Below are positions 3 to 50,065 of a stretch of 64,000 bases of DNA, piece after piece. The stretch lies in IMG/VR virus record IMGVR_UViG_3300029610_000240. The stretch is one strand, 5' to 3'. Position 1 is the first letter of the stretch. The number at the start of each line of letters is the position of its first letter. The stretch is from a virus. Its lineage: Duplodnaviria > Heunggongvirae > Uroviricota > Caudoviricetes. The position numbers and the translations under genes were made by a program. The notes below the pieces were generated by a model that did no database searches, was not told where the DNA came from, and worked only from the letters and a program-made list of their open reading frames with translations.

Positions 3-3000
3 GCAACAAAAAAAGTTGCCGATACGATCACAACGAATACGGAAGGATATGCAGAATCCAAAGAACTGGATCCGGGAACATATTATGTTCATCAGATCGA
101 AGGAACTCCAAACTATAAATTTAGTGAGGATTCCGCAGATATCAAGATCGAGAATGGAGATACAGGAAAATACAATCACAATGTTGTATTAAAGAACTAT
201 GGTTCCACAAAACTTCGTATCATCAAGAAGATGAGTAAGAATAAACGAAGCAAGGCAGAAGTTGGAGCTTCCTTTACGGTTCTGGATGCATCTTATACCA
301 AAGATATTGAAAAACAGGATCTTGGAAATGCACAAAAAAGAATCGACTATATCAATTCCCTGGACAAAAAAGCAATCCTTGGAGAGATCGTAACGAACAA
401 AGAGGGAAAAGCTGCCCTGATGTTAGACAAATACAGTAAGAAGAATGGATTTGTCGTTATTCAGACCATGGGAGCTGACGGATATGATCTGATGGGAATC
501 TACTATTCCAAAGATCATAACCCAAAGACGGAAAAAGGACAGGATGTTTATGAGATCGAGGCATCTGATCCATACTCTGATTCCGGATGGGTAGAAATCT
601 ACAAGCAAAAGAGAGTCGCAGCGGATGAATATGTACCAGAAGTCGGAGCGAAGTTTGAGTTAAAAGAAGCGGATGGACATGTCGTAGAAACACTGACGAT
701 CGGAAAGGACGGAAAAGCAAAGACCAGCGAAAAAGTAGCACTGGGAGCTTATATCCTGCATCAGGTAGCCGGTGAAAATGGCTGCACAAAAGAACAGGAT
801 AAGCATGACTGGATCGAAGATCAGGATATCGTCTTAACAAAAGACAACAAAAATAAGACTGTCAGCTATTCTTACGATGATAATGAAAAACCGATCGAAG
901 TAGAACTTGTCAAACAATCCTCTGAAACAAAAAAACTGTTAAACGGAGCTGTCTACAAAGTCTATGACAGTGAAAAGAATCAGGTGGCAACATTAACAAC
1001 AGGAACGACCTCTGACGGGAAAGCATCCTGCAGACTGCCATATGGAACTTATACGATCAAAGAAACAACTGCACCGGATGGTTACAATCTTGATACAGAA
1101 CAAAGAACCTTTACCTTAAGTGAAAAGTCTGACAGTATCAAGATCAAATATGACAATGCCGGAAACGGAAAAGCAACCTTAAACGAGACAGATACACCGG
1201 TCATGGGTTCGATCTCCTTACAGAAGAAAGGAGAGTATCTGACAGGGCATGATGGAGATGTAGGATTCACATATGAAGATGATAACATCAATGGAGCTGT
1301 TTACGGCTTGTTTGCCAAAGAAGATATCACAAAAGATGATGGAACCGTTGTATGGAAAGCGGGAACAAAGATCGATGAAAAGACAACAAGCAAAGACGGA
1401 CCAGTGATTTTCACAAGAACAGGCAGCGATGGAAAACAGACGACTAATTTCTATCAGGGCCACTATTATGTCAAAGAACTTTCCGGTCCAAACGGATATA
1501 CCATTGATAAAGAAGAGCATGAAGTCAATATCACATGGGATACGAAACCAGATGCTATGAACAATCTGAATAAAAACAATACAACGCCGGATGTGGAAGA
1601 TCCAATGGGAAGTGAAGATGCGAAACCATCAACAGGGATCTATGTTCTGGAAGAAGGCGAAACTTTAAACAAAGAATTTGCCAATGCAGAGACGATCACG
1701 TTTACATGGGAAAAGGCAGCAGACGGAGTCCAGACAAAAGACGTTTCCCAGAACAAGGACGGAAGTGTTGTTTTATGGAAAGATGGAAACAACTATTATG
1801 TATCCACACAGAGAGCCGGACAGGTCATCTACATGAACGCTGTATCAAGTAAGATGTTCTTAAACTGTACAGCACTGACAACGATCAAATTTAAAAACAT
1901 TGATACTTCACAGACCGTGGATATGTCTGAGATGTTTGCCGGATGCGGAGCATTAAAAGAACTCGACTTATCAAGTTTCAACACATCTAATGTGGAAGAT
2001 GTATCCAAAATGTTTTACGGATGTTCTGAACTAAAGACAACCTATACACAGGATCAGAAGTTACAGATCACGGATGATTACGTGGCAGCAAAAGGATTAC
2101 AGATCACAGCTTCTCCAAAAACAGACTTTATGTTAGGAGATAAATACAAAGCCAGTGATTTTGACTTCTCTATGCTCTATGATGATAATGGAGAGGAAAC
2201 ACTGGAAGATGTGACGGACGCAGATGTCAGCTTCAATCCAACCTATGCAGATATGTCTGGAAAACAGAAAGTTCAGATCAGCTTTAAGTCATCCAGTAAA
2301 TATGCAAAATACCAGACGATTGAAACAACAGTCAAAGTCATCGATCCTGATGATACGAGTGATGTATCCTTAGATACGGCAAAACATGTAAACATCGACC
2401 TGAACCTGACTGATAAGCTTCAGAAATACAGCATTCAGTTTATCAAAACAGACAACAAAGGAAATATGTTACCGGGTGCGAAGTTTGCATTAAAAGCAGC
2501 CTGTGAGATCGTGGACCGCAATGGAAAGACGATCTTTAAGAAAGGTGATACGATCGCAACAACTGTTTCCGGAGATGATCAGTTTGGTTATCTGGAATTC
2601 TTCGGACTGCCAACTGGTATTTATGCAAAAGACGGTGTTGGCAAAGAAATGTATACGGTGGAAGAGATCGAAGCACCACTTGGATATAATAAGTCCGATG
2701 AAAAGCTGACATTTGGCGGAGAAGTATTAAACAATACGGCTGCGGACTTTATCCATGACGTGGCATCCCAGGGAAATACCAATACCGATGAAACAACTTA
2801 CAAACATGATTCCAAGACAATTGTCAACACTCCATCAGATTATGTGCAGGTGAAGAAGTACTGGATTGATGATAACAACTCCATGAACACAAGACCTGTA
2901 TCAGTGACCATCAAAGCCGAAAATAAGAATACACATGAAGTGAAGACTTATGTTCTGAACAAAGATAACAACTGGGCAATGCAGACAGATATCAAGCGTG

Positions 3001-4673
3001 GTGAGGAAAAGAACTATACGTTTAGTGAAGTTTGTAATGCAGCAGGTTACACAAGAGTTAGTGAAGCAAGTGGCGATTGGGATGAAAAAACATATACTTT
3101 ATCTTATACAAACAAATATGATAAGAATGATAAAGTACGGATTGTTGTCAAGAAAAACTGGAATGACAGTAATAATAGTGATGGTATTCGCCCAGATTCT
3201 GTTGTTGTGAGAGTTTATCAAAATGGTACAGAAATAAATCATAAAACATTAGATGCGAGCAATAACTGGACTGCAGAATTTAATAACCTCAATAAGACTG
3301 ATCCTGTTGGAGAAGATTACGAATATGAAGTGAAAGAAGATTCATCCTCTGTTGTTAACGGAAATGCAAAAACAGGTTATGAAGTGGCATATGAAGTAAA
3401 GAAATCAACGGATAAATCTACAGGTATCACAACGATCTCAACAGATATCACAAACACACATAGTCCAGATTCAACGACCAAATCCATTCAGAAGAAATGG
3501 AGTGATAACAACGATTCCGATGGCATCCGCCCAGATTCTGTCAAGTTCAATCTTGTCGGAAACGGAAAAGTCGCAGATACCGTAACCTTGTCTGAAAAGA
3601 ATGGATGGAAAGCGACATCCAAGCTCGTTCCAAAGAAAGAAAATGGAAAAGCGATCACTTATACATGGCAGGAAGTACAAGAAGGTGTGGTCACAGGAGA
3701 GAGTCAGATCGGATATAAGGCAACTTATACAACCGATAAAGATGATCCTGATACAACGATCGCAACCAATACCCATACACCGGGAAGAGGAAAGGTAACG
3801 ATCACGAAAGAGATCGATCCATCTAACTTAAACATGGATATCGGAAGTGCGAAATTTACGTTTACACTGAAAGGAACCGATGCTTATGGAAAGAAACATA
3901 CGTACAAGGAAGAGGTTGAATTCAGCAAGGATGAAGTAGCAAAACAGTTAAAAGCTCATCCGGGAGAAAGGATCAAACTTTCTGCAACCTTCGATGATCT
4001 GATCTACGGTACTTATACATGCAGCGAGAGTGGTGGAGAGAAATACTTTAAGCTCCTGACACTTACATCTGACAGCACCAATGCAACGGTTGACCAGAGC
4101 AAAGGAACTGTAACATTTAAGATCGGACCAGAAGGAACTATGGGAAATGCGAAACTGACAGCAGATGCAACTTTCGTTAACCAGATGATCCGTGGATCCG
4201 TAAAATTAGTTAAGAAAGATTCCTCCGGAAAACGATTAAAAGGTGTGGAATTTACGATCGAAGATTCCGATGGAAACAAGATCGCCAGTGACACAACAAA
4301 CGAGAATGGAGAGATTAAGTTTGATGGATTACTGCCAGATAAGTATAAGATCACAGAGACAAAGACACAGAGCGGTAAGACACTGTTAAAAGAACCAATC
4401 GATGTAACGATCCCAATGACAGTGACACAAAGCGAAGTGAACGATCAAAATATCGATGTGAGCAATGCGATCAAGCAGGGAAATAACTATTATTTCTATC
4501 ACTTAACTTATGAGGTGAGCAATGATTCCACACTGAACCTGCCATCAACTGGTGGATTCAGTAATATCAAGACTTACCTTCCACTGATCGGTGGATTCGT
4601 ACTGATCTTAGCAGCAGGATTCTATTATCTGAAAAAGAAAAAGGGTATGAAAATCCTGAAGAAGAAAAAATAA
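3..4673 (+). CDS. LPXTG cell-wall-anchored adhesin, 5' partial (frame open to window start). Repeated Cna-B/SpaA-type modules (TGxYxxKExxAPxGY-like) and a BspA-like leucine-rich module. C-terminal LPSTGG sorting signal, hydrophobic span and K-rich tail.
   Basis: ORF 231..4673 stays open in frame back to nt 3. The C-terminal sorting signal 'LPSTGGFSNIKTYLPLIGGFVLILAAGFYYLKKKK' is a classic sortase substrate. 'KETTAPDGYNL' and 'YVKELSGPNGYTI' are Cna-B-like motifs. 'MFAGCGALKELDLSSFNTSNVEDVSKMFYGCSELK' matches a BspA-type leucine-rich repeat. Confidence 0.8.
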   Translation, partial: ATKKVADTITTNTEGYAESKELDPGTYYVHQIEGTPNYKFSEDSADIKIENGDTGKYNHNVVLKNYGSTKLRIIKKMSKNKRSKAEVGASFTVLDASYTKDIEKQDLGNAQKRIDYINSLDKKAILGEIVTNKEGKAALMLDKYSKKNGFVVIQTMGADGYDLMGIYYSKDHNPKTEKGQDVYEIEASDPYSDSGWVEIYKQKRVAADEYVPEVGAKFELKEADGHVVETLTIGKDGKAKTSEKVALGAYILHQVAGENGCTKEQDKHDWIEDQDIVLTKDNKNKTVSYSYDDNEKPIEVELVKQSSETKKLLNGAVYKVYDSEKNQVATLTTGTTSDGKASCRLPYGTYTIKETTAPDGYNLDTEQRTFTLSEKSDSIKIKYDNAGNGKATLNETDTPVMGSISLQKKGEYLTGHDGDVGFTYEDDNINGAVYGLFAKEDITKDDGTVVWKAGTKIDEKTTSKDGPVIFTRTGSDGKQTTNFYQGHYYVKELSGPNGYTIDKEEHEVNITWDTKPDAMNNLNKNNTTPDVEDPMGSEDAKPSTGIYVLEEGETLNKEFANAETITFTWEKAADGVQTKDVSQNKDGSVVLWKDGNNYYVSTQRAGQVIYMNAVSSKMFLNCTALTTIKFKNIDTSQTVDMSEMFAGCGALKELDLSSFNTSNVEDVSKMFYGCSELKTTYTQDQKLQITDDYVAAKGLQITASPKTDFMLGDKYKASDFDFSMLYDDNGEETLEDVTDADVSFNPTYADMSGKQKVQISFKSSSKYAKYQTIETTVKVIDPDDTSDVSLDTAKHVNIDLNLTDKLQKYSIQFIKTDNKGNMLPGAKFALKAACEIVDRNGKTIFKKGDTIATTVSGDDQFGYLEFFGLPTGIYAKDGVGKEMYTVEEIEAPLGYNKSDEKLTFGGEVLNNTAADFIHDVASQGNTNTDETTYKHDSKTIVNTPSDYVQVKKYWIDDNNSMNTRPVSVTIKAENKNTHEVKTYVLNKDNNWAMQTDIKRGEEKNYTFSEVCNAAGYTRVSEASGDWDEKTYTLSYTNKYDKNDKVRIVVKKNWNDSNNSDGIRPDSVVVRVYQNGTEINHKTLDASNNWTAEFNNLNKTDPVGEDYEYEVKEDSSSVVNGNAKTGYEVAYEVKKSTDKSTGITTISTDITNTHSPDSTTKSIQKKWSDNNDSDGIRPDSVKFNLVGNGKVADTVTLSEKNGWKATSKLVPKKENGKAITYTWQEVQEGVVTGESQIGYKATYTTDKDDPDTTIATNTHTPGRGKVTITKEIDPSNLNMDIGSAKFTFTLKGTDAYGKKHTYKEEVEFSKDEVAKQLKAHPGERIKLSATFDDLIYGTYTCSESGGEKYFKLLTLTSDSTNATVDQSKGTVTFKIGPEGTMGNAKLTADATFVNQMIRGSVKLVKKDSSGKRLKGVEFTIEDSDGNKIASDTTNENGEIKFDGLLPDKYKITETKTQSGKTLLKEPIDVTIPMTVTQSEVNDQNIDVSNAIKQGNNYYFYHLTYEVSNDSTLNLPSTGGFSNIKTYLPLIGGFVLILAAGFYYLKKKKGMKILKKKK

Positions 4674-7039: not shown

Positions 7040-7495
7040 ATTGTAGCTGTATAACTTGCAAACAGCTACATACTTGTGCTATAATAAAAGTATGAAAAGA
7101 GAATATAAAGTTACAAAAACAACAACATCACTGATCAAGTATCATTTCGTTTTTTGCCCAAAGTATCGAAGAAAGATATTTCTGATCCATGGGGTAGAAG
7201 AACGAATGAAAGAATTGACAAAGGAACAGTGTGAAAAGGATCAGATCGAGATTCTTGAGATGAAATGTGATGTGGATCATGTATATTTATATGTAAGAGC
7301 ATATCCACAGACAACAATAACAAGGATCATGGGGAGCATCAGAGAGTACACATCAAAAATATTAAGAAAGGAATTTAAAGAACTATCAAAAATGAGTTCT
7401 CTTTGGACTAGATCTTATTTTGTTAGCACAGAAGATTTTATTAGTCTGGATACGATCAAATGGTATGTTGAGCAGCAAAAAACTAGAGGGTAAGT
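7040..7495 (+). mobile_element. IS200-like remnant: left-end hairpin plus tnpA, with no room for a right end
   Basis: Imperfect palindrome 'tagctgtataacttgcaaacagcta' at 7043-7069. tnpA stops 20 nt before the RBS of the next gene, so there is no downstream subterminal hairpin. Confidence 0.5.
7092..7493 (+). CDS. tnpA: IS200/IS605-family Y1 (HuH) transposase TnpA, probably degenerate (HuH motif reads H-V-Y)
   Basis: 'YHFVFCPKYRRKIF' is the TnpA N-terminal signature. 'DVDHVYLYV' replaces the canonical HxH. 'YFVST...IKWYVEQQ' is the catalytic-Tyr region. ATG 7092 is preferred over the TTG at 7056. A 'tgctataat' -10-like element lies just upstream. Confidence 0.7.
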   Translation: MKREYKVTKTTTSLIKYHFVFCPKYRRKIFLIHGVEERMKELTKEQCEKDQIEILEMKCDVDHVYLYVRAYPQTTITRIMGSIREYTSKILRKEFKELSKMSSLWTRSYFVSTEDFISLDTIKWYVEQQKTRG

Positions 7496-16359: not shown

Positions 16360-16843
16360 AAATACTTTGATTGGTATAGAATTCTTTTTGTGGTTGTGAT
16401 AATATAATATGAAAGTTGTGTTTGCGAACGCAAGACACTGGCAACAAGGCAAAAAGTTGTAGTCCATACAGAGGACTTCCGAAATCTGTAACGTAATACA
16501 CATTTTTAGAATGTGTGATCCCGGTGACTGGGCGATAAGTCATAACCCATATGGAGGGTTTCCAAAATCCATAACTGAATAGCTCATCTACCATTTACTA
16601 GGAAGAAAGAGAAACCCTACCTGTGTTATTATATAGGTAGGGTTTGTTATAAATTTGTGGCGAAAACCCACACGCTTGCGTGTGGGATGAAAGCTACATT
16701 TCACTTGACATATACATAGATTAAATATATATATTAAAATACAGAAAGAAAACAGACCATGAGTAAGAGCAACTATGATATAAACACGCATACAACACAA
16801 AATAATGCTACACAATATCATTCAAGTCGTGGAGGAAAAAATA

Positions 16844-17023
16844 ATGGCACAAACTAAAAGTGACAATGTACAAATAAATATTTCTATTCCTACTGGATGG
16901 AAAACAGAACTTGAAAATCTTGCTCGTATCTATTCTGTTGAAGAAGGAAAAACCATCACTTTTCTTGACTTAATGCGTAGAGGTATTCAGGAAAAATATC
17001 AATTAGGAGAAAAAAGGCAGTGA
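16844..17023 (+). CDS. Small protein (59 aa) inside the IS, possibly a ribbon-helix-helix-like DNA binder
   Basis: RBS 'ggaggaaaaaataatg'. Protein 'MAQTKSDNVQINISIPTGWKTELENLARIYSVEEGKTITFLDLMRRGIQEKYQLGEKRQ'. Fold guess only. Confidence 0.4.
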   Translation: MAQTKSDNVQINISIPTGWKTELENLARIYSVEEGKTITFLDLMRRGIQEKYQLGEKRQ

Positions 17024-17433
17024 GTGAGGAACAATATCATAGTGCTTCACATTGTAAATATTTGATACAGTATCATATCATTTGGTGTCCCAAGTTCAGA
17101 TTTTCAGTATTACAAGGAAATGTCGATATCATTCTTAAACAGATATTACAGAAAATTTGTAATGATTATAAATACAAGATCAAAGCACTCGAAGTGATGC
17201 CAGATCATATACATATTTTCATAGATGTTCCGCAGACAGTTGCTCCTTGTGATGTTGTAAGAACTCTCAAAAGTATCAGTGCTATCGAATTATTTAAAGT
17301 ATTTCCAAAATTAAAACAGTTCTATGCGAAATGCGGAGTATTATGGCCAAGAGGATACTTTGTATCTACTGTCGGACATATAAGCGAAGCTACAGTAATT
17401 AAGTATATTGAGGAGCAGAAAAATGATAAGTGA
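17020..17433 (+). CDS. tnpA: IS200/IS605 Y1 HuH transposase TnpA (intact)
   Basis: 'YLIQYHIIWCPKFR', HuH 'MPDHIHIFI', and catalytic Tyr in 'GYFVSTVGHISEATVIKYIEEQ'. Confidence 0.85.
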   Translation: MSEEQYHSASHCKYLIQYHIIWCPKFRFSVLQGNVDIILKQILQKICNDYKYKIKALEVMPDHIHIFIDVPQTVAPCDVVRTLKSISAIELFKVFPKLKQFYAKCGVLWPRGYFVSTVGHISEATVIKYIEEQKNDK

Positions 17434-19036
17434 TAAAGAATATAAAAAACTTTTAAAACAATTTCATAAACTTTCTGACAGGCATATCTTGGTTGTAGAA
17501 ACCGATATGCCATCTTCTGATGTACAAAAGGTTGTGATTCTTTCTGATAAGATCAGAAAAGCAGGTAATGAGCTTGTTGGTCTTATGAGAAAGAATTATG
17601 ACCAACTTATGCGTACTAAAAAATATCGCAAGTTGCTAAAACTCTATGGTTCTACCAACGATAAAAAGAAACACAGAGATCTAGCAAATCAGCTCAATGA
17701 AATGCAAAAACAGTACAATGTCACATGGGATCATTGCAGAAACGCTATGATACATATAGGTAAGAAATATAGTATTGATGCCGTATTTGCCCTTACAAAA
17801 GCTGAAGATATATGGCGTGGTATTGAAAAATGTCTTTATAACAATGGTAAAACTATTCATTTTTCTAAATATGGTGAGTTGCCTTGTATCAGGGCAAAAC
17901 AGATAAATCGTGGCATTTCAATGTCTGTTAAAGATAATGAATTAAAATTCAAATTAAAGGGAAATGTATTTGGGATACAGGTTAAAGATAGATTTCAAAC
18001 AGATGAAGTTTGTGCGGTTTTAGAATATTTATCAAGATCAGAGATCATAAATGATAAAGCAATAAATAAATTTTTAGATAAAGCATACTGTATTGATACA
18101 TACAGACCTTGCTATGCTACTCTTGTACCTAAATTTATTCGTGGAAAATATAGGGTGTATTTGCATCTTACTATTGAAGGTAAGGCGAAACCTAAATATG
18201 ATAGGTTTGGTAATCCAAGACATAAGTTTGGCAAAGGTATTATAGGCGCAGATATTGGTACACAGACTGTTGCGTATACATCAAATACTGAGGTGGGCTT
18301 GAAAAATCTTTCAGAGCGTGGTAACAGTATTCAGACTTCTGAAAGAAGAGAACGTCTGCTTTACCGTGCGATGGACAGGTCAAGACGTGCAACTGATCCG
18401 CAAAACTATAATGATGATGGTACTGTTAAAAAAGGCCGCAAAACTTGGAAATATTCTAATCATTATAAAAAGCTAAAAGCTAAACACTCTGAACTATGTC
18501 GTATCAATGCTATAAACAGACAGCTTGCAATAAATGAAGACGCTAACCATTTAAGAAGTCTTGGAGATGTATTTATCACGGAACCTAAAAATGCAAGTAA
18601 ACTTATGAAACGAACTAAAGATACTACGGTCAATAGTAAAGGTAAGTTTCATAAGAAAAAGCGTTTTGGAAAATCCATAAAGAACAGATGTCCTTCTGGG
18701 TTTCAAACTACTGTAGAGCGGAAATTTAAGGTATCAGGTGGTATATATATTGAAGTACCTAATAATTACAGAGCAAGTCAATATGACCATACAGCAGATG
18801 ATTATATCAAGAAAAAGCTGTCTGATAGAATATATAAACTTACTGACGGAACATTGGTACAAAGAGATTGGTATTCATCATTCTTATTATACTGTTACGA
18901 TTACAGAACTAAAGATATAGATAAAAACAAATGTATTTCTGAATTTGATAAGTGTTACAACAAAGAAAAAGCTCTGATCGAATGGATCAAGGCTAACAAG
19001 ATCAAAATATTAAATAGCGGAATTAAGATATCGTAA
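17423..19036 (+). CDS. tnpB: TnpB-like RuvC-fold protein (IS605 OrfB family), unusually long, with the canonical CxxC...CxxC zinc finger replaced
   Basis: RuvC-I 'GADIGTQTVAYTS' and RuvC-II-like 'DVFITEPKN'. 'VPNNYRASQYDHTADDY' sits where TnpB has '...yTSQ.C..CG'. RuvC-III-like 'QRDWYSSFLL' (compare RDxNAAxNI). RBS 'gaggag' before ATG 17423. Confidence 0.6.
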   Translation: MISDKEYKKLLKQFHKLSDRHILVVETDMPSSDVQKVVILSDKIRKAGNELVGLMRKNYDQLMRTKKYRKLLKLYGSTNDKKKHRDLANQLNEMQKQYNVTWDHCRNAMIHIGKKYSIDAVFALTKAEDIWRGIEKCLYNNGKTIHFSKYGELPCIRAKQINRGISMSVKDNELKFKLKGNVFGIQVKDRFQTDEVCAVLEYLSRSEIINDKAINKFLDKAYCIDTYRPCYATLVPKFIRGKYRVYLHLTIEGKAKPKYDRFGNPRHKFGKGIIGADIGTQTVAYTSNTEVGLKNLSERGNSIQTSERRERLLYRAMDRSRRATDPQNYNDDGTVKKGRKTWKYSNHYKKLKAKHSELCRINAINRQLAINEDANHLRSLGDVFITEPKNASKLMKRTKDTTVNSKGKFHKKKRFGKSIKNRCPSGFQTTVERKFKVSGGIYIEVPNNYRASQYDHTADDYIKKKLSDRIYKLTDGTLVQRDWYSSFLLYCYDYRTKDIDKNKCISEFDKCYNKEKALIEWIKANKIKILNSGIKIS

Positions 19037-19391
19037 AACATATTTAGGAAGATTGACTATACTTCCTTACGAAAGTAGAAATTTACCGTCAATGTGGTCG
19101 TTGGACTGCTTGGTAATGAAAGCTCTGATTCAAATAGACTTACACTTGTAACTCCAAAGTCTGAAAATGATGTACGATTACAAGCTACACTTGATAATCA
19201 GAACCCCACGGGCTTGCCCGTGGGAGTAGTCAGATATAAAATTATATTTATTGTTTTGAATAAAAAATAAATTTTTTATCAAGATACACAAATGATATAA
19301 TTTGTGCTATAATTTATATCATGAGTTGTTGTATCAAAAGGCAACTTTTTATTAGAAAATTGGATATAAGGACAGTTTATGTCAAGGAAAT

Positions 19392-19424
19392 AGAGATATT
19401 CAGAGAAATATCTCTATTTTTTTA
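19392..19424 (+). terminator. Rho-independent terminator
   Basis: 'agagatattcagagaaatatctctattttttt'. Confidence 0.7.
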
Positions 19425-19460
19425 TCATTTTTTGCTTTAGTGGAGAAAGGAGACGTGCAA

Positions 19461-19772
19461 ATGAAACAGTATATCGGAATAAAGGTTGTTGCTGCGAGAC
19501 CAATGACAAGAGGTGACTATAATATCTTTCGAGGATGGCAGATTCCGGCAGACGAAGATCCTGCCGATGAAGGATATGTGATGAAATACGAGAATGGACA
19601 TGTGCAATGGTTGCCAAAGGATATGTTTGAGTCTGACTATAAAGAATATGACGAGAGTACCCTGCCGGCAACAGCTATTGGTATGGTAAGTTCAGATTAC
19701 AAAGAATGTTTTCAGGCAGAGTACAAGCAGCTCAGAATTCGTTATGAAAAATTGAAGAGAATGCGTCAATAA
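19461..19772 (+). CDS. hypothetical protein (about 103 aa)
   Basis: RBS 'gaaaggagac' before ATG 19461. No motif recognised. Its 3' end abuts the IscB element left end. Confidence 0.45.
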   Translation: MKQYIGIKVVAARPMTRGDYNIFRGWQIPADEDPADEGYVMKYENGHVQWLPKDMFESDYKEYDESTLPATAIGMVSSDYKECFQAEYKQLRIRYEKLKRMRQ

Positions 19773-19799
19773 CCCCGACCTACAGTAATAACTGTTGAG

Positions 19800-20044
19800 G
19801 TCGGAGCTTGTAAAAGCTCATATTGACTAGCCTAAGTTCTTCGAGAACTACGTTGTTTATGTTATCACACCTGCGAATGATACCATAGTTTGCAGCCTTG
19901 TGTAGGCTCTGTAAAAGTTCTGTGAGGTAGGAACGGTCAACCTAGTATGTTCGATCACGACAAGCATTTACAACATTGGCGAAGGGTAACAAACTTTCAA
20001 AAGAAAGGGACAGCACTTGAGAGTAGCTGTCAAAGGTAAAAACT
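19800..20044 (+). ncRNA. Putative IscB omega-RNA scaffold (structured, about 240 nt, immediately 5' of iscB)
   Basis: No ORF. Multiple local stems, for example 'gagcttgtaaaagctc' and 'ctgtaaaagttctgtgagg...'. The position matches the known IscB omega-RNA location overlapping the left end. Confidence 0.55.
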
Positions 20045-21319
20045 ATGAGAGTATTTGTATTCAATATGCGTGGCAGACCATTAATGCCATGCTCACAAAG
20101 AAAAGCCAGATTACTCCTAAGGGAAAATAAGGCTATGATTTATAAATATCATCCATTTACGATTCAGCTGACTTATACAACTGGAGAAACAAAGCAGGAC
20201 TGTCATATAGGTATAGACACAGGTTCTAAATATATAGGAGCTGCTGTCAGATCAGAGGATAAGGTTTTTTGGAAAGGCGAAATCGAGCTTCGACAGGATA
20301 TCAGGTCAAATCTTGATACGAAACGTATTTATCGCAGAAGCAGACGAAATCGTAAAACAAGATACCGAAAACCAAGGTTTTTAAATCGTAAGAGAAGAGA
20401 TGAATGGCTTCCACCTAGCTTGCAAAGCAGGATAAATCATACGTTTCATTGGATTGACACATTGAGTAGTTTGGTTCCAAACCCCATTCTTCACATAGAA
20501 GTCGGTAAGTTTGATGTAGCAAAGATGATAAATCCTGAAATCCATGGAGTTGACTATCAACATGGTCAGACATATGGTTTCTTCGATGAAAGGTATTTTG
20601 TTTTTGCAAGAGATAACTACACTTGTCAGTGCTGTGGAAAGTCAAAAAATAAGATTTTGAACACACATCATATCATCTACCGCAGTAATGGCGGAACAAA
20701 CAGAGTTGATAATCTTATTACAGTTTGCACAGATTGTCATACATCGCAGAATCACAGGAAAGGTGGAATATTCTATCAATGGCAGGAGCAGCATAAAAAG
20801 GTAAAACAATACAAAGAACCGCCGTTCATGAATACCTTACGTAAGAGGATATTTGTAGCGTATCCAGATGCTGAGATCACATATGGATCTGAAACAACAC
20901 CAAAACGTAAGGCGATGAAATTGGATAAGACGCACTATAATGATGCGATTGTCATTAGTGGTATCAATGAAATTAAAGAAAATCCTGAAGAATGGTTACT
21001 GATAAAACAATTCCGCAAAAAGAAACGCTCTTTACACGAGGCTACCGCCCGTAAGGGAAGAAAAAAGCCAAACAGAAATCAGACGCGTAACAGTAAGAAT
21101 ACGCCTTATTATAAAGGATTTTATCTTAACGATAAGGTTTCAGTTTTTGGAAAGAGTGGATATATTACAGGATTTACGAGCAATGCGGCATATATAAAAG
21201 ATGAGAACAATGACTATATTACTCTGCCAAACAAAACCTATAAACAGGTCAGCATCAATAAAATGAAGTTGGAATGTCATAACAACAATTGGCAGTACAT
21301 AATAAAAAATGCTGTGTAA
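20045..21319 (+). CDS. iscB: IscB, an RNA-guided nuclease ancestral to Cas9 (PLMP domain, split RuvC, HNH)
   Basis: PLMP motif 'RGRPLMPCS'. RuvC-I 'IGIDTGSKYIGAAV'. HNH 'CQCCGKSKNKILNTHHIIYRSNGGTNRVDNLITVCTDCH'. Length 424 aa. Confidence 0.85.
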   Translation: MRVFVFNMRGRPLMPCSQRKARLLLRENKAMIYKYHPFTIQLTYTTGETKQDCHIGIDTGSKYIGAAVRSEDKVFWKGEIELRQDIRSNLDTKRIYRRSRRNRKTRYRKPRFLNRKRRDEWLPPSLQSRINHTFHWIDTLSSLVPNPILHIEVGKFDVAKMINPEIHGVDYQHGQTYGFFDERYFVFARDNYTCQCCGKSKNKILNTHHIIYRSNGGTNRVDNLITVCTDCHTSQNHRKGGIFYQWQEQHKKVKQYKEPPFMNTLRKRIFVAYPDAEITYGSETTPKRKAMKLDKTHYNDAIVISGINEIKENPEEWLLIKQFRKKKRSLHEATARKGRKKPNRNQTRNSKNTPYYKGFYLNDKVSVFGKSGYITGFTSNAAYIKDENNDYITLPNKTYKQVSINKMKLECHNNNWQYIIKNAV

Positions 21320-21386
21320 TCCGCAATTCATCCCACCACCTATAGAGGTGGGGGACTTCTTGCTCACGGCGTGTTAAATAATTTCC

Positions 21387-21878
21387 ATGAAAGAGAGGTT
21401 TTTTATGCAAAAAAGATATCAATACTGTATGTCAGGTATGTTTGCTGCGACAGATCAAAATTATTACGAAATTAACATCCCATCTCCGCATACATATGAG
21501 ACGGAAGAAGAAGCTATGGCAGATGGAGCTTTTGGATATCGTTTTGTTTTATTGCCTGGTGGTAAAGGACCACAAGTAGTTATATTTGAAGGATCTGGCT
21601 TTCGTCTGGTTTGTGATGGAAAAGAAAATTATATAAAAGACTGGGTTGAAGGAGATATTGTCGGAATATATGATTTCGATGAATTTACAAAAGCTGGTGG
21701 CTATATCCGCTTACTAAATCCAGAACTGGGAGACGATGTTTGTATTATTGAAGATTCAGACTTTTTGGACACAGATAAAACGTTTGCGGATATTTTCCCT
21801 AATATGGAACATCTAAAGCTGTATTATATCGATAATCTTGCATATTCCATTGATGAAATAACAGAAGGAGATAAATAA
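21387..21878 (+). CDS. hypothetical protein (163 aa)
   Basis: ORF only. Confidence 0.4.
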   Translation: MKERFFMQKRYQYCMSGMFAATDQNYYEINIPSPHTYETEEEAMADGAFGYRFVLLPGGKGPQVVIFEGSGFRLVCDGKENYIKDWVEGDIVGIYDFDEFTKAGGYIRLLNPELGDDVCIIEDSDFLDTDKTFADIFPNMEHLKLYYIDNLAYSIDEITEGDK

Positions 21879-23001: not shown

Positions 23002-23446
23002 AGTAGAAAATGATATTGTAACGATCGGGATGAACAATGGTTCCATTAAAGAAGTTCGAAGATGTGATCTTGGATTTGATCCTGTTCTTGGAGATTTGGT
23101 GGAAATTTTCGAGAATGAAGATCAGATCATTGTGACAAAGGCAAAAAAAGAGCCTGAGAATCACAACGATGCTGGAATCAATATTAACATGACAAACAGT
23201 ATTAACAATGCATCTGATGTGGCAGCAGGAAATGGAAAGAAAGTAGTGAATAAAGTAGCTTACTGCTTACTGGCACTTTTCCTTGGTGGTTTCGGTGCTC
23301 ATAAGTTTTACAGTGGAAAGACTGGGATGGGAATCCTCTATATTGTGTTTTGTTGGACAGCGATTCCAAGTTTTGTTGCATGGGTAGAATTGATCATTGC
23401 TGTATTTACCAAAAAAGCCGATGCAAACGGAAACATTGTTATGTGA
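22979..23446 (+). CDS. TM2-domain protein (soluble N-terminal domain plus C-terminal TM2 double-helix module)
   Basis: 'AYCLLALFLGGFGAHKFYSGKTGMGILYIVFCWTAIPSFVAWVEL' matches the TM2 'GxHRFYxG' signature. Confidence 0.7.
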   Translation: MKKGKVIRVENDIVTIGMNNGSIKEVRRCDLGFDPVLGDLVEIFENEDQIIVTKAKKEPENHNDAGININMTNSINNASDVAAGNGKKVVNKVAYCLLALFLGGFGAHKFYSGKTGMGILYIVFCWTAIPSFVAWVELIIAVFTKKADANGNIVM

Positions 23447-23449
23447 CAT

Positions 23450-23600
23450 CCTCTCCCATCTATAGAGGTGGGAGCTTCCCTAACCTCGGCAGGTTTGGTT
23501 CTCGTTCGATAGCACCAATGTGCTAAGCTTAAGCGAGCTAACCCCGTGTGTCCCACGGTTGTATTATGTGAAATTGTGGTTATGCAGTTACTATCCGCAT
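23450..23600 (-). ncRNA. Putative TnpB omega-RNA (reRNA) region overlapping the tnpB 3' end and the right-end hairpin
   Basis: Structured, ORF-free segment immediately 3' of tnpB on the minus strand. Local palindromes 'gcttaagc' and 'ccgtgtgtcccacgg'. Placement follows the known TnpB reRNA organisation. Confidence 0.45.
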
Positions 23601-24698
23601 TCCCTCATTTCTGATATTGATCGCTGCATTTACATCTCTGTCGTGATGGATTCCACACTGCGGACAATCCCACTGCCTGAGTGCAAGATCCTTTGTTTTC
23701 GCATTCTTGTAACCACAGGCAGAACACATCTGACTGCTTGCAAAAAATCTGTCCACTTTCACAAGTTTTTTCCCTTGTTCCTCAAGTTTATACTTTAGAA
23801 AGGCTGTGAACATTCCCCATCCATTATCCGAAACGGATTTTCCCAATTTCAACGACCGAGACATTGCTTTCATATCCAGATCCTCTATACATACACAATC
23901 ATAGGCATTGGTTATCTGTCTTGACTGCTTATGCAGAAAATCTTTTCGCTGATTGGAAACTTTTTCGTGAAGTTTGGCTACCTTGATTCTCTGTTTCCTG
24001 CGATTGTTCGAACCTTTCTGCATCTTGGAAAGTCTGCGTTGTTCTCTTGCTAATCTTTTCTCTGCGTTCCGGTAATATCCTGGATATGCCGGTTCATTGC
24101 CATTACTGTCACGATATAATCCGTGCATGGAAAAGTCCAGACCTAAAAAACTGTGCATCTCCTTTTCTGGTATCTGATCTTCATACTCAAAAAGGATACT
24201 TGCATAGTATCTTCCGCCTGGTGTCTGGCTGATCGTCACTGATTTCAACCTGTATCCCTTTGGAACAGATCTGTGCTGCTTTAATCGGACTTGTCCGATC
24301 TTTGGCAGTTTCAGATACCCATCCGATATGGTGATGTTGCCATTGATACATATGGTTGAATAGCTGTTTTTATGATTCTTTTTTGATTTGAACCTTGGAA
24401 ATCCTGTTTTCGGCCGTTTGAAAAAGTTCTGAAATGCTGTATCAAGGTGTCGGAGTGATTGCTGTAAGGATATACTATCGACTTCCCGCAAAAATGCGTA
24501 TTCTTCCGTTTTCTTCATTTCAGCCATTTCTTTCGCACAGACAGTATATGTTATATTTGTCTTGTTCTTCTTATACTGCCTGATCCTTCGATTAAGCCAA
24601 TGGTTGTACACCATTCTGACACAGCCGAAAGTCCTGGCAAACAGAATCATCTGCTCATTATTGGGATATATTCTGAATTTATATGCTCTGTTTGCCAT
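23580..24698 (-). CDS. tnpB: TnpB RNA-guided endonuclease (IS605 OrfB), with intact RuvC and zinc finger
   Basis: 'AYKFRIYPNNEQMILFARTFGCVRMVYNHWL' is the canonical TnpB N-terminus. RuvC-I 'LGLDFSMHGL'. Zinc finger plus RuvC-III 'CSACGYKNAKTKDLALRQWDCPQCGIHHDRDVNAAINI'. Confidence 0.9.
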   Translation of the reverse strand: MANRAYKFRIYPNNEQMILFARTFGCVRMVYNHWLNRRIRQYKKNKTNITYTVCAKEMAEMKKTEEYAFLREVDSISLQQSLRHLDTAFQNFFKRPKTGFPRFKSKKNHKNSYSTICINGNITISDGYLKLPKIGQVRLKQHRSVPKGYRLKSVTISQTPGGRYYASILFEYEDQIPEKEMHSFLGLDFSMHGLYRDSNGNEPAYPGYYRNAEKRLAREQRRLSKMQKGSNNRRKQRIKVAKLHEKVSNQRKDFLHKQSRQITNAYDCVCIEDLDMKAMSRSLKLGKSVSDNGWGMFTAFLKYKLEEQGKKLVKVDRFFASSQMCSACGYKNAKTKDLALRQWDCPQCGIHHDRDVNAAINIRNEGMRIVTA

Positions 24699-25220
24699 GG
24701 TATCACTCCCTTAGTTTTCTGCTTGTGTTTTTGATCATTTTAACAATTTATTATATTTTATCATTTCTTTATTATTCTTTTAAATATATTATACTATGAT
24801 CAGAATACAATATCAAGTGCTTAACAGACGCAATTCATCTCTCACCTTAGAGGTCGGAGTCTTCTTGCTGGAAGAAGATAAAGTATAAGAATAAAAGCCC
24901 CAAAATCTTAACGGATAACGGGGCTTATTTTTTTGTTTAGAAGTTGGAATAAATTATAAATAATAATTTAAAATATGTAATATTCCCATATAATTATAAT
25001 GTTATTCTTGAAATATGTTCAAATAAAGCTAAAAAATATGGGAGCGTTACATATTTTTGCTTGTAATTTGTCAAGGTTATTGTATAATTAAATTATAACG
25101 AACGTTCGTACTAATTAATTTTGAAATGGAACAAAATGTGATTAGAAAGGTAACATTTTTACATGAATTTGGAAAAACAAAAAGAAAATTTCAAGAATCA
25201 TAGGGCAATATTTAAAGATC

Positions 25221-32467: not shown

Positions 32468-32904
32468 GGTACCACAATAAGAGGGAAATATGAAATAACA
32501 GGTGTTCTACTATGTAGAAAATATTATATTGTTTTAAATGAGAATGGGAAAGATCATACATTTGAGATTCCTAAAAGCCAATACAATTCAATAAAGCTGA
32601 ACAGTCGTGTATTGTGTAAGATAAATTATAAAGAAAATAAAATTACAAAAATTAAAATGATCGATAAATCAAGAATTTTATATAATCCTTTCGTTCAAAA
32701 ACTTAGATAACGTAACTATAAAGAGATTCATGATGATGACTTAATTGATGATTTAAGACAAAGTTTTAAAAATATGTAACAGATATATGTAAAAACAAAT
32801 GGCAGTTACATAATGCGTAAGAATAAGAATGTATCGAATAAGTCTATATAAGTAGAATCTACCAGGTGGTAGAAAATATTAAAACTAACAGGAGATAATA
32901 TTTC

Positions 32905-46126: not shown

Positions 46127-49100
46127 GTGCAGAATGGATTTTTAGGAATAACTGTTAGTAGTGAACAGGTTGGTTGGGCAGTTACAAATCCCAAATATGA
46201 GTTAGAACGTGCATCTCGAAAAGATTTATGGGGTGTAAGGCTTTTTGATAAAGCAGAAACAGCGGAAGATCGAAGAATGTTCCGTACAAACAGACGATTA
46301 AATCAGAGAAAAAAGAACAGAATACATTATCTTAGAGATATTTTCCATGAGGAAGTAAATCAAAAAGATCCTAACTTTTTTCAGCAATTAGATGAAAGCA
46401 ATTTCTGTGAAGATGATCGTACTGTAGAGTTTAATTTTGATACTAATCTTTATAAGAATCAGTTTCCAACAGTGTATCATTTAAGAAAATATCTAATGGA
46501 AACAAAAGATAAACCAGATATTCGTCTGGTATACTTAGCTTTTTCAAAATTTATGAAAAATCGAGGACATTTCTTATACAAAGGAAATCTTGGAGAGGTT
46601 ATGGACTTTGAAAATTCCATGAAAGGCTTTTGTGAAAGTTTAGAGAAATTTAATATTGACTTCCCTACATTATCAGATGAACAGGTAAAAGAAGTCCGAG
46701 ATATCTTATGTGATCATAAAATTGCTAAAACTGTGAAAAAGAAAAACATCATTACTATTACAAAAGTAAAAAGTAAGACAGCAAAAGCATGGATTGGACT
46801 GTTTTGTGGTTGCAGCGTTCCTGTTAAAGTATTATTTCAGGATATCGATGAAGAAATTGTAACGGATCCAGAAAAAATCTCATTTGAAGATGCTTCTTAT
46901 GATGATTGTATTGCAAATATTGAAAAGGGTGTCGGTATTTATTATGAAGCTATTGTTTCTGCAAAGATGCTTTTTGACTGGTCTATCCTGAATGAAATTT
47001 TAGGTGACCATCAGTTATTAAGTGATGCAATGATCGCAGAATACAATAAGCATCATGATGATTTAAAGCGTTTACAGAAGATCATTAAAGGAACTGGCAG
47101 TAGAGAATTATATCAGGATATCTTTATTAATGATGTTTCTGGAAATTATGTATGCTACGTTGGTCATGCAAAAACAATGAGTAGTGCAGATCAGAAACAG
47201 TTTTATACATTTTTAAAAAATCGATTAAAAAATGTGAATGGTATTTCATCAGAAGATGCAGAATGGATTGATACAGAGATTAAAAACGGTACTTTACTAC
47301 CAAAACAGACAAAACGTGATAACAGTGTTATTCCGCATCAATTACAGTTAAGGGAATTTGAATTAATTCTTGATAACATGCAGGAAATGTATCCATTCTT
47401 AAAAGAAAACAGAGAAAAATTATTAAAAATCTTCAATTTCGTTATTCCTTATTATGTAGGTCCGCTAAAGGGCGTTGTAAGAAAAGGAGAGAGTACAAAC
47501 TGGATGGTGCCTAAAAAAGATGGTGTGATTCATCCATGGAATTTCGATGAAATGGTAGACAAAGAAGCGTCTGCGGAATGTTTTATTTCCCGAATGACAG
47601 GAAATTGTAGTTATTTATTTAATGAAAAAGTTCTTCCAAAGAATTCTCTTCTTTATGAGACATTTGAGGTATTAAATGAGCTAAATCCATTAAAGATCAA
47701 TGGAGAACCTATCAGCGTGGAATTAAAACAGAGAATTTATGAACAGCTTTTCTTGACAGGGAAAAAAGTTACAAAAAAATCTCTGACAAAATATCTTATC
47801 AAGAATGGCTATGACAAAGATATTGAATTATCAGGTATTGATAATGAATTTCACAGCAATCTAAAATCTCATATTGATTTTGAGGATTACGATAATCTAT
47901 CTGATGAAGAAGTTGAACAGATTATTCTTAGAATTACAGTATTTGAAGATAAGCAGCTGTTAAAAGATTATTTAAATCGCGAGTTTGTAAAGCTCTCTGA
48001 GGATGAGAGAAAACAGATTTGCTCATTATCTTATAAAGGATGGGGAAACTTATCAGAAATGCTATTAAACGGTATTACTGTAACAGATTCCAATGGTGTA
48101 GAAGTTTCTGTAATGGATATGCTGTGGAATACAAACTTAAATCTGATGCAGATCTTAAGTAAGAAATATGGATATAAAGCAGAAATCGAACATTACAATA
48201 AAGAACATGAAAAAACCATTTATAATCGTGAAGATTTGATGGATTATTTAAATATTCCACCGGCTCAGCGTAGGAAGGTAAATCAGCTGATTACGATAGT
48301 AAAATCTCTCAAAAAGACATATGGAGTTCCAAATAAGATTTTCTTCAAAATAAGCAGAGAACATCAGGATGATCCAAAGAGAACTTCATCCAGAAAAGAA
48401 CAGCTAAAATATTTATACAAATCCTTAAAATCAGAAGATGAAAAACATCTTATGAAAGAGCTTGATGAATTGAACGATCATGAATTATCCAATGATAAAG
48501 TTTATCTTTATTTTCTACAGAAAGGACGCTGCATTTATTCTGGCAAGAAATTAAATCTTTCAAGATTAAGAAAATCTAATTATCAGAATGATATTGACTA
48601 CATTTATCCATTATCTGCAGTAAATGATCGTTCTATGAATAATAAGGTATTAACGGGAATCCAGGAGAATCGAGCAGACAAGTATACCTATTTTCCAGTT
48701 GATTCAGAAATTCAGAAAAAAATGAAGGGATTTTGGATGGAACTGGTTCTGCAGGGATTTATGACAAAGGAGAAATACTTCCGATTATCCAGAGAAAATG
48801 ATTTTTCAAAGAGCGAACTTGTTAGCTTTATTGAACGTGAAATTTCAGATAATCAGCAAAGTGGAAGAATGATTGCTTCTGTATTACAGTATTATTTCCC
48901 TGAATCAAAGATTGTATTTGTAAAAGAAAAGCTGATTTCTTCCTTTAAGAGGGATTTCCATTTAATTAGTAGTTATGGTCACAATCATTTACAAGCTGCA
49001 AAAGATGCTTATATTACGATTGTAGTTGGAAATGTATATCATACAAAATTTACAATGGACCCAGCAATCTATTTTAAGAATCATAAGAGAAAAGATTATG

Positions 49101-50065
49101 ATCTGAACCGATTATTCTTAGAAAATATCAGCAGAGATGGACAGATTGCATGGGAAAGTGGTCCATATGGGTCAATTCAGACGGTTCGAAAAGAATATGC
49201 TCAAAACCATATTGCTGTTACAAAAAGAGTCGTGGAAGTAAAAGGCGGCTTATTTAAGCAGATGCCATTAAAAAAAGGACATGGCGAATATCCATTAAAA
49301 ACCAATGATCCTAGATTTGGCAATATCGCACAGTATGGAGGGTATACGAATGTCACAGGTTCCTATTTTGTATTAGTAGAATCAATGGAGAAAGGGAAAA
49401 AACGTATTTCTTTAGAATATGTTCCAGTATATCTTCATGAGCGTTTAGAGGATGATCCTGGACATAAACTGTTAAAAGAATATCTGGTTGATCACAGAAA
49501 ACTTAATCATCCAAAGATTTTACTTGCAAAAGTAAGAAAAAACTCATTACTTAAGATTGACGGTTTTTATTATCGTTTAAATGGTCGAAGTGGAAATGCT
49601 CTTATCCTTACAAATGCAGTGGAATTGATCATGGATGACTGGCAGACAAAAACAGCAAACAAGATTTCTGGATACATGAAACGCAGAGCTATTGATAAGA
49701 AAGCAAGGGTTTATCAAAATGAATTCCATATTCAGGAATTAGAACAGCTTTATGATTTTTATTTAGATAAATTAGAGAATGGTGTTTATAAAAATCGTAA
49801 GAATAATCAGGCTGAATTAATTCACAACGAAAAAGAACAGTTTATGGAACTCAAGACAGAAGATCAGTGTGTATTATTGACTGAGATTAAAAAGCTTTTT
49901 GTATGTTCTCCAATGCAGGCAGACCTTACATTGATTGGTGGCAGCAAACACACAGGAATGATTGCTATGTCAAGCAATGTTACAAAAGCAGATTTTGCAG
50001 TCATTGCGGAAGATCCTTTAGGACTTAGAAACAAAGTAATTTATTCTCATAAAGGTGAGAAGTAA
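46127..50065 (+). CDS. cas9: Type II Cas9 homolog (1312 aa) with substituted catalytic residues in RuvC-I (Asp to Thr), RuvC-II (Glu to Lys) and HNH (His to Tyr); predicted nuclease-dead
   Basis: N-terminal 'FLGITVSSEQVGWAV' (compare 'IGLDIGTNSVGWAV'), 'TVYHLRKYL', 'DIRLVYLAFSKFMKNRGHFL'. RuvC-II 'KIFFKISREHQ' (compare 'NIVIEMARENQ'). HNH 'NDIDYIYPLSAVNDRSMNNKVL' (compare '[21 protein letters not shown]'). RuvC-III region 'SYGHNHLQAAKDAYI'. RBS 'aaggagg' before GTG 46127. Confidence 0.9.
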   Translation: MQNGFLGITVSSEQVGWAVTNPKYELERASRKDLWGVRLFDKAETAEDRRMFRTNRRLNQRKKNRIHYLRDIFHEEVNQKDPNFFQQLDESNFCEDDRTVEFNFDTNLYKNQFPTVYHLRKYLMETKDKPDIRLVYLAFSKFMKNRGHFLYKGNLGEVMDFENSMKGFCESLEKFNIDFPTLSDEQVKEVRDILCDHKIAKTVKKKNIITITKVKSKTAKAWIGLFCGCSVPVKVLFQDIDEEIVTDPEKISFEDASYDDCIANIEKGVGIYYEAIVSAKMLFDWSILNEILGDHQLLSDAMIAEYNKHHDDLKRLQKIIKGTGSRELYQDIFINDVSGNYVCYVGHAKTMSSADQKQFYTFLKNRLKNVNGISSEDAEWIDTEIKNGTLLPKQTKRDNSVIPHQLQLREFELILDNMQEMYPFLKENREKLLKIFNFVIPYYVGPLKGVVRKGESTNWMVPKKDGVIHPWNFDEMVDKEASAECFISRMTGNCSYLFNEKVLPKNSLLYETFEVLNELNPLKINGEPISVELKQRIYEQLFLTGKKVTKKSLTKYLIKNGYDKDIELSGIDNEFHSNLKSHIDFEDYDNLSDEEVEQIILRITVFEDKQLLKDYLNREFVKLSEDERKQICSLSYKGWGNLSEMLLNGITVTDSNGVEVSVMDMLWNTNLNLMQILSKKYGYKAEIEHYNKEHEKTIYNREDLMDYLNIPPAQRRKVNQLITIVKSLKKTYGVPNKIFFKISREHQDDPKRTSSRKEQLKYLYKSLKSEDEKHLMKELDELNDHELSNDKVYLYFLQKGRCIYSGKKLNLSRLRKSNYQNDIDYIYPLSAVNDRSMNNKVLTGIQENRADKYTYFPVDSEIQKKMKGFWMELVLQGFMTKEKYFRLSRENDFSKSELVSFIEREISDNQQSGRMIASVLQYYFPESKIVFVKEKLISSFKRDFHLISSYGHNHLQAAKDAYITIVVGNVYHTKFTMDPAIYFKNHKRKDYDLNRLFLENISRDGQIAWESGPYGSIQTVRKEYAQNHIAVTKRVVEVKGGLFKQMPLKKGHGEYPLKTNDPRFGNIAQYGGYTNVTGSYFVLVESMEKGKKRISLEYVPVYLHERLEDDPGHKLLKEYLVDHRKLNHPKILLAKVRKNSLLKIDGFYYRLNGRSGNALILTNAVELIMDDWQTKTANKISGYMKRRAIDKKARVYQNEFHIQELEQLYDFYLDKLENGVYKNRKNNQAELIHNEKEQFMELKTEDQCVLLTEIKKLFVCSPMQADLTLIGGSKHTGMIAMSSNVTKADFAVIAEDPLGLRNKVIYSHKGEK

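Follow-up and report, generated by a model that had tools for sequence, protein, structure and literature searches.

A probable iscB-omega-RNA transposon of Anaerostipes hadrus in a 64-kb viral record: boundaries, alleles and recent movement

Background

We analyze a locus in a 64,000-nucleotide (nt) stretch of DNA (hereafter, the window) taken from the IMG/VR virus record IMGVR_UViG_3300029610_000240, which is classified among the Caudoviricetes. At this locus, a gene for a 424-amino-acid (aa) IscB protein lies on the plus strand at 20045..21319, directly downstream of a segment that matches a structured RNA family and between two hairpin-bearing ends of the kind that bound IS200/IS605 transposons. 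These parts form a non-autonomous IS200/IS605 (ISC-type) element of 1609 nt that carries only iscB and an omega-RNA and has no transposase gene. An earlier description of the window, made by a model from the letters alone (hereafter, the sequence-only reading), had proposed an IscB element with an upstream omega-RNA, IS200/IS605 hairpins and no transposase of its own, and this core proposal was borne out on every test that we ran.

Elements of this kind have a known organization. Linkage of iscB to tnpA is rare (~1.5%), iscB points the same way as the gene upstream of it, the RNA encoded upstream of iscB is bounded by the right end (RE) of the transposon, and the transposase TnpA and IscB share an adjacent motif; the HEARO RNA family was later recognized as the IscB omega-RNA (Meers 2023, 10.1101/2023.03.14.532601).

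Results

Boundaries and ends of the element

We compared four copies of the element, namely that in the window and those at L059, L062 and L001. The L059 copy sits at a different locus and is one single-nucleotide polymorphism (SNP) away from the window element, the L062 copy has 86% DNA identity to it, and the L001 copy is a pseudogene with 76% protein identity to the window IscB. In all four, similarity starts at GTCAATAACCCC (19765) and stops just before TTAAA (21374), and because start and stop are common to four contexts, we place the element at 19765..21373, with iscB on the plus strand and the transposase-defined top strand on the minus strand. The length of 1609 nt recurs in 12 of 16 occupied contigs. 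The span of 19780-21372 given by the sequence-only reading thus did hold an element, but its limits were not the true ends.

Both ends carry a subterminal hairpin, as had been claimed, and the element is without terminal inverted repeats. The RE (19765..19810, minus strand) contains a hairpin at 19775..19804 with a single-stranded DNA fold z-score of -5.4, and it terminates in TTGAC on the top strand, which reads GTCAA at 19765-19769 on the plus strand; it aligns with the RE of L001 and with that of a neighbouring TnpB element. The left end (LE; 21320..21373, minus strand) has a hairpin at 21332..21354 (z = -3.8) in which, on the top strand, a T is bulged out; the conserved ATGAATTGCG comes after the hairpin. 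This end can be aligned to the LEs of L001 and the TnpB element and, in part, to that of a TnpA element upstream. The end hairpins are conserved in L001 and L062.

Directly after the element stands TTAAA (21374..21378, plus strand), which, read on the top strand, is TTTAA, the target of TnpA, and which is also the predicted target-adjacent motif of IscB, 3' of the target. The flank reads TTAAAT, TTAAAA, TTAAAA and TTAAAG at the four IscB insertions, and the flanks are not duplicated. We rejected TTAAC as the flank motif, since the empty allele and all four flanks read TTTAA/TTAAA. An 18-nt LE end motif occurs in ten further loci, where, on the opposite strand, TTTAA comes directly before it in all but one. 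The scan of viral contigs for this LE type gave eight further loci, L166 among them; seven of the eight have TTTAA before the LE on the top strand, and the other, L168, has TTTTTA. At L166, the LE is followed by tnpA, which encodes a Y1 TnpA, and then by tnpB in an autonomous element. From this arrangement it follows that the end on the side of the iscB stop codon is the transposase-defined LE, that the active strand is the minus strand, and that the omega-RNA abuts the RE.

The IscB protein

The iscB open reading frame (ORF) is supported by the ORF list as well as by Pfam, NCBIfam and structure matches. The product scores 371.5 bits against guided_IscB (NF040563; NCBIfam equivalog "RNA-guided endonuclease IscB"), for which the cut-off is 175, and it matches Pfam RRXRR at residues 3-174 (2.9e-61) and HNH at residues 194-237 (4.8e-10). 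Its best matches among solved structures are TbaIscB, HfmIscB and OgeuIscB (4e-38 to 1e-25). The PLMP motif at residues 12-15, a split RuvC (D58 in RuvC-I, E152 in RuvC-II, and H297/D300 of the HYND motif at 297-300 in RuvC-III), an arginine-rich bridge helix (residues ~96-118) and an HNH inserted in the split RuvC together give the architecture of IscB, with a C-terminal domain at residues ~305-424. This is the PLMP, split RuvC and HNH order that the sequence-only reading had recognized by eye. There is no Pfam match to Cas9_REC, and 424 aa is too short for a REC lobe.

The HNH domain contains the zinc cysteines C194/C197/C228/C231 and the residues H208/H209, N223 and H232 (residues 208-232 read HHIIYRSNGGTNRVDNLITVCTDCH). 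OgeuIscB D61, E193, H247, H340 and D343 align with D58, E152, H209, H297 and D300 here, and N223 and H232 are likewise aligned to catalytic residues of OgeuIscB. In an alignment of 68 homologues drawn from viral contigs, the catalytic positions, the four zinc cysteines and PLMP are invariant or nearly so, the PLMP motif being kept in 66-68 of the 68. We found none of the catalytic positions mutated, and IscB is predicted on these residues to be catalytically intact. By analogy with characterized IscB proteins, it would be expected to cut double-stranded DNA under the direction of an RNA and in dependence on an adjacent motif.

The protein had also been called compact; the median length of the homologues is 418 aa (n=68), so that 424 aa is the usual size in this clade. 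An identical protein is present in NCBI as "RNA-guided endonuclease IscB [Anaerostipes hadrus]", and the public contigs that encode it number at least 1000. Clustering at 90% identity groups this IscB with proteins of 923 aa, one of which is the representative of the cluster. We considered and rejected these as N-terminally extended IscBs: they are GH3-type glycosidases, and as unrelated glycoside hydrolases they reflect a clustering artefact in the protein collection.

The omega-RNA and its guide

Directly upstream of iscB and on the same strand, Rfam HEARO (RF02033) matches 19765..19994 with 112.4 bits (gathering score 83, E = 2e-22). The match is full-length, covering model positions 1-211 of 211, and the pseudoknot and the P1 helix, in which 19765-19771 pair with 19821-19827, are conserved. 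A further hairpin at 20009..20031 lies 3' of the Rfam model and right before the ribosome-binding site; its pairing is kept in L001 through a double change (GACAGC/GCTGTC to GATAGC/GCTATC). With this hairpin, the putative omega-RNA scaffold extends over 19765..20035 on the plus strand. The ORF list contains no ORF of 50 aa or more in 19773..20044, iscB itself starting at 20045, and the 280 nt upstream of the iscB ORF fold with z = -3.96, beating 200 of 200 shuffles.

HEARO also precedes the IscB homologue at 17 of 20 related genome loci. For 16 related RNAs, aligned with MAFFT in an alignment that was not fitted to the structure, RNAalifold predicts 39 pairs, 27 of them with compensatory changes on both sides. 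The predicted structure of the omega-RNA is conserved and covarying. A covariance-model search had been suggested as the check on the upstream RNA, and the full-length RF02033 match, the covariation and the strong fold of an ORF-free segment all come down on its side.

The predicted guide, AAATTGAAGAGAATGC, occupies 19749..19764 (plus strand) in the flank outside the transposon RE. Its position follows from the start of the scaffold at 19765, and its length, which we take to be 16 nt, is that of OgeuIscB. The sequence-only reading had looked for the guide upstream of 19783, and the scaffold start moves it to the stretch given here. At the four insertion sites, this stretch has four different sequences. 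In the empty allele, AAATTGAAGAGAATGC is followed by TTAAAA, that is, by a predicted guide match with its motif, while in the occupied allele it is followed by GTCAA. A promoter-like site at 19285..19313 lies upstream of the gene into which the element is inserted, and the promoter of that gene may drive the omega-RNA.

The matching PHROG families are annotated "HNH endonuclease" and the neighbouring genes are phage-like, both of which would suit a conventional phage HNH homing endonuclease that recognizes DNA by protein contacts, with the upstream structure unrelated to it. This explanation is contradicted by an HNH that lies within a split RuvC and comes with a PLMP domain and a bridge helix. 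A full-length, covarying HEARO upstream, recurrent at related loci, and a mobile unit bounded by IS605-type hairpins speak against it as well, and we regard it as scarcely credible.

Presence, absence and recent movement

Scanning viral and metagenome contigs with the 25 nt left of the element returned 24 contigs that sample this locus. The element is present in 20 of them and absent from 4 (L052/L141, L147, L150 and L158), and the genomes that differ in its presence are otherwise >99% identical. The occupied copies are 1-5 substitutions from the window element. This polymorphism and the one-SNP copy at a second locus (L059) indicate that the element moved recently. A megablast search of GenBank phage records gave no match to 19300..21800.

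The target gene and a 132-nt deletion

The element is inserted in a phage-type gene with a crAss001_48-related domain (Pfam PF21825), of which the window retains a truncated version at 19440..19772 on the plus strand. The full-length allele in L052 matches PF21825 at profile positions 1-60 of 61 (1.2e-17), and the window copy keeps only positions 1-25. The final codons of the truncated gene, CGT CAA TAA, are supplied by the element, including the stop. In the empty alleles, this gene is 44 codons longer and its crAss001_48-related domain is complete.

The missing 44 codons correspond to a deletion of 132 nt (L052 486..617) that is found in all 16 occupied contigs with both junctions, and the deleted segment is bounded by two TTAAA motifs. 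We looked for an allele with the deletion but not the insertion. Such a pre-existing short allele, with the flanks simply joined, occurs in 0 of the 24 contigs, and the predicted clean empty site, GAAGAGAATGC+GTTAAATAATTTCC, is absent from the viral contigs scanned. In the simplest accounts, either the element entered at the proximal TTTAA and slippage between two 9-nt near-repeats, ATTATTTAA and ATTTTTTAA (top strand), came afterwards, or a one-step replacement used both TTTAA sites.

The empty allele keeps both the guide match and TTAAAA, which would leave it open to cutting by the IscB of an occupied genome. It is conceivable, if on balance unlikely, that the loss of 132 nt is itself part of how the element spreads: IscB would cut the empty allele and repair from the occupied allele would copy in the element and delete the 44 codons in an RNA-guided allele conversion that truncates a phage-type gene, or TnpA would act on two TTTAA sites 132 nt apart in a single-step replacement. 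The linked deletion might inform on imprecise IS605 integration.

The setting also bears on whether the host or a prophage has taken over IscB for a purpose other than transposon maintenance, such as defence or RNA-guided repression. Co-option of this sort is known for nuclease-dead relatives of TnpB, and the element here lies within a phage-type gene cluster, where it permanently truncates a phage-type gene in most of the sampled genomes. However, the nuclease residues are all intact, the guide is mere flanking sequence that changes from site to site, and the termini are intact in an element that has recently moved. We consider such a role very improbable.

Neighbouring elements and the source of transposase

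Two further IS605-family elements lie close by. A non-autonomous TnpB element is found 2 kb downstream at 23443..24877 on the minus strand, with tnpB (23580..24698; NCBIfam IS200_TnpB, 441 bits) antisense to iscB and TTTAT as its flank motif. Its termini are homologous to those of the IscB element, as judged from repeat families D1, D16 and D17 and from end alignments, and it is precisely absent in L050, L051 and L052. Upstream, an autonomous IS605-type element at 16655..19219 (plus strand) encodes a TnpA at 17020..17433 (Pfam Y1_Tnp, 6e-37) and a 542-aa TnpB-like nuclease at 17408..19036, and it is absent in L050. The sequence-only reading had singled out the co-occurrence of IscB with TnpB as notable; of the 63 ISC-positive genomes in Table 2 of Kapitonov 2016 (PMC4810608), 62 have TnpB as well, and the combination is in this light usual.

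That reading had further proposed that the TnpA at 17020..17433 mobilizes the IscB element in trans. The hairpins of the 16655..19219 element (CCCACACGC.../CCCACGGGC...) and its flank motif differ from the IscB type, and its only features in common with the IscB LE are the stem base CCCAC/GTGGG and the 3' flank ATGAA. Its TnpA is 27% identical to that of L166, which is natively linked to an LE of the IscB type. With a different hairpin body, a different flank motif and this level of identity, we rejected it as the helper because the proposal is unsupported. The window contains a second Y1 TnpA, of IS200 type, at 7056..7493 on the plus strand (Pfam Y1_Tnp, 5e-32), which the sequence-only reading did not mention; it lies directly upstream of the gene for a 1239-aa transglutaminase/Big_2 surface protein. 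The window TnpAs may cross-react with the ends of the IscB element. Homologues of the L166-type TnpA number in the thousands in gut metagenomes, with one named match (Lachnospiraceae).

Among contigs that are otherwise >98% identical (L049-L052), the TnpB and TnpA elements are each found in some and missing from others, independently of one another. Both are inserted precisely and without duplication, and in both cases the stop codon of the gene upstream is supplied or overlapped by the element. Three IS605-family elements are thus segregating within 9 kb.

Sequence searches of Pfam, NCBIfam and PDB gave no match to the 542-aa ORF (17408..19036, plus strand). Its family is very large and unannotated, with 1905 representatives at 50% identity, and is called "hypothetical protein" where it is named at all. 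D282, E392 and D487 vary little or not at all within the family and resemble a RuvC triad; there is no zinc finger. The AlphaFold model has a predicted local distance difference test (pLDDT) score of 91.5 and matches TnpB/Cas12f structures, the best being ISFba1 TnpB (E = 5e-13). BLASTP found no match between this ORF and the window TnpB, and the relationship appeared only by profile and fold search. A non-coding tail of 183 nt (19037..19219) runs up to the right end of the element, where a TnpB-type guide RNA would lie. On this model, we regard the protein as a divergent TnpB-like nuclease overlooked by current annotation.

Other features of the window

A 1312-aa Cas9 homologue is encoded at 46127..50065 on the plus strand and has Pfam matches to REC, PI, bridge-helix and HNH_4. 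It has GITVS in place of the RuvC-I motif GLDIG, so that the catalytic Asp is replaced by Thr, and it has no D-x-D-H/N motif. These substitutions are compatible with the remark in the sequence-only reading that the window contains a dead Cas9, which the residues would predict. Eight copies of the Rfam motif RAGATH-30, each ~59 nt and on the plus strand, begin at 32817, 36299, 50281, 51138, 51469, 53988, 55601 and 56267. They score 65-79 bits (gathering score 59.5) and are scattered between genes, with several flanking the region of the Cas9-like gene. A literature search for RAGATH-30 returned no papers.

Discussion

We read 19765..21373 as an Anaerostipes hadrus transposon of the IS200/IS605 family (ISC), non-autonomous and with only iscB and its omega-RNA on board, which would home by means of the guide, and we put the probability of this reading at roughly 0.88. 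The element is well-formed and probably still mobile.

What is known of how this family works (Altae-Tran 2021; Meers 2023) suggests the following cycle. A Y1 TnpA acting in trans would peel out the minus (top) strand as single-stranded DNA, with TTTAA marking the cut at the LE and TTGAC that at the RE, in both cases on the 3' side of the motif, and would reinsert the element on the 3' side of a further TTTAA. Read-through from the co-oriented upstream gene would probably produce the omega-RNA, and since such a transcript starts in the flank, its first ~16 nt (AAATTGAAGAGAATGC) would be the guide. IscB and the omega-RNA would then recognize AAATTGAAGAGAATGC only where TTAAA follows, that is, at an empty site or an excision joint; at the occupied site GTCAA follows, and so the element would be spared. 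IscB would cut both strands with its HNH and RuvC domains, and recombinational repair from an occupied sister copy would reinstate the element. Such repair would prevent loss of the element and could also spread it to empty alleles.

Several observations weigh against this account. We infer the guide length, the motif read by IscB and the homing step from related systems. The insertion is not clean, and the standard mechanism does not predict a loss of 132 nt from the target. A cognate TnpA was not found in the window, where both Y1 TnpAs are ~26-27% identical to the L166 TnpA. Some occupied copies have 1-nt indels or an internal deletion of 72 nt, and the closest relative in the genome collection, L001 (Candidatus Enterococcus stercoripullorum, 2732..4266), is a pseudogene with a deletion of ~62 nt; from these it follows that decay occurs in the lineage. 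The L001 copy is flanked by two small ORFs, one antitoxin-like and one toxin-like by eye, which were not searched against family libraries.

Some of these facts would suit a stranded fossil, in which IscB and the omega-RNA look intact and the host has no compatible TnpA, so that the element neither moves nor serves in transposon maintenance. In its favour, the element has no tnpA, neither TnpA in the window belongs to its terminus type, its relative L001 is a pseudogene, and a few metagenome copies have indels. However, a copy a single SNP away lies at another locus, the present locus is polymorphic among nearly identical genomes, gut metagenomes abound in the TnpA type natively linked to this LE, and the termini and hairpins are intact. 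We therefore judge the fossil to be improbable and prefer an element that still moves.

The element is real but ordinary, and there is nothing novel in it. IscB elements, omega-RNAs, termini common with TnpB elements and the homing role have all been described, and as the exact protein already bears the name IscB in NCBI and the biology is published, the locus carries little weight as a discovery. Its value lies elsewhere. An intact IscB of 424 aa, for which the omega-RNA and the element boundaries are defined and TTAAA is predicted as the motif, offers a test case for homing in a gut commensal or for a compact editor, and the natural occupied and empty alleles in human-gut metagenomes add practical value for the study of IscB homing.

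Comparison with known systems

The ISC transposons of Kapitonov, Makarova and Koonin (2016, PMC4810608) provide the nearest frame, in the portions of that paper compared here. Like them, the element is short and has IscB only (1609 nt, versus 1341-1707 nt); it has subterminal hairpins, inserts site-specifically and makes no target-site duplication; and an IS605 element that has TnpB alone, encoded antisense, shares its termini. The targets there are GT|GG or N|ATGA, whereas TTTAA here is AT-rich like those of the Geobacillus elements, and the A. hadrus family is not among the ISC families described in those portions.

OgeuIscB (7xht, 7utn, 8csz) has the same domain order and catalytic residues, a HEARO-type omega-RNA with a 5' guide, and a human-gut origin. 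The similarity is remote (E = 1e-25, in two stretches), and the present protein is ~70 aa shorter, with a C-terminal motif-reading domain that does not align. The full-length match to HEARO RF02033 exceeds the gathering score, and the model ends at 19994; beyond it comes one more hairpin on the 3' side (20009..20031), a feature also of the omega-RNAs that Meers et al. refined. The first hairpin of the omega-RNA has a 12-nt insertion relative to L001.

The IscB element of Geobacillus stearothermophilus (ISGst; Meers 2023, 10.1101/2023.03.14.532601) belongs to a different host and has a different motif, and the element described here is known from sequence only. The two are otherwise alike: both are non-autonomous, in both the omega-RNA abuts the RE, and both have an AT-rich 5-nt motif common to TnpA and IscB, TTCAT there and TTTAA here. 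The dead mutant of the ISGst IscB, D58A/H209A/H210A, affects nearly the same positions as D58 and H208/H209 in the present protein, and TnpB elements with related ends are found alongside the ISGst IscB element, too.

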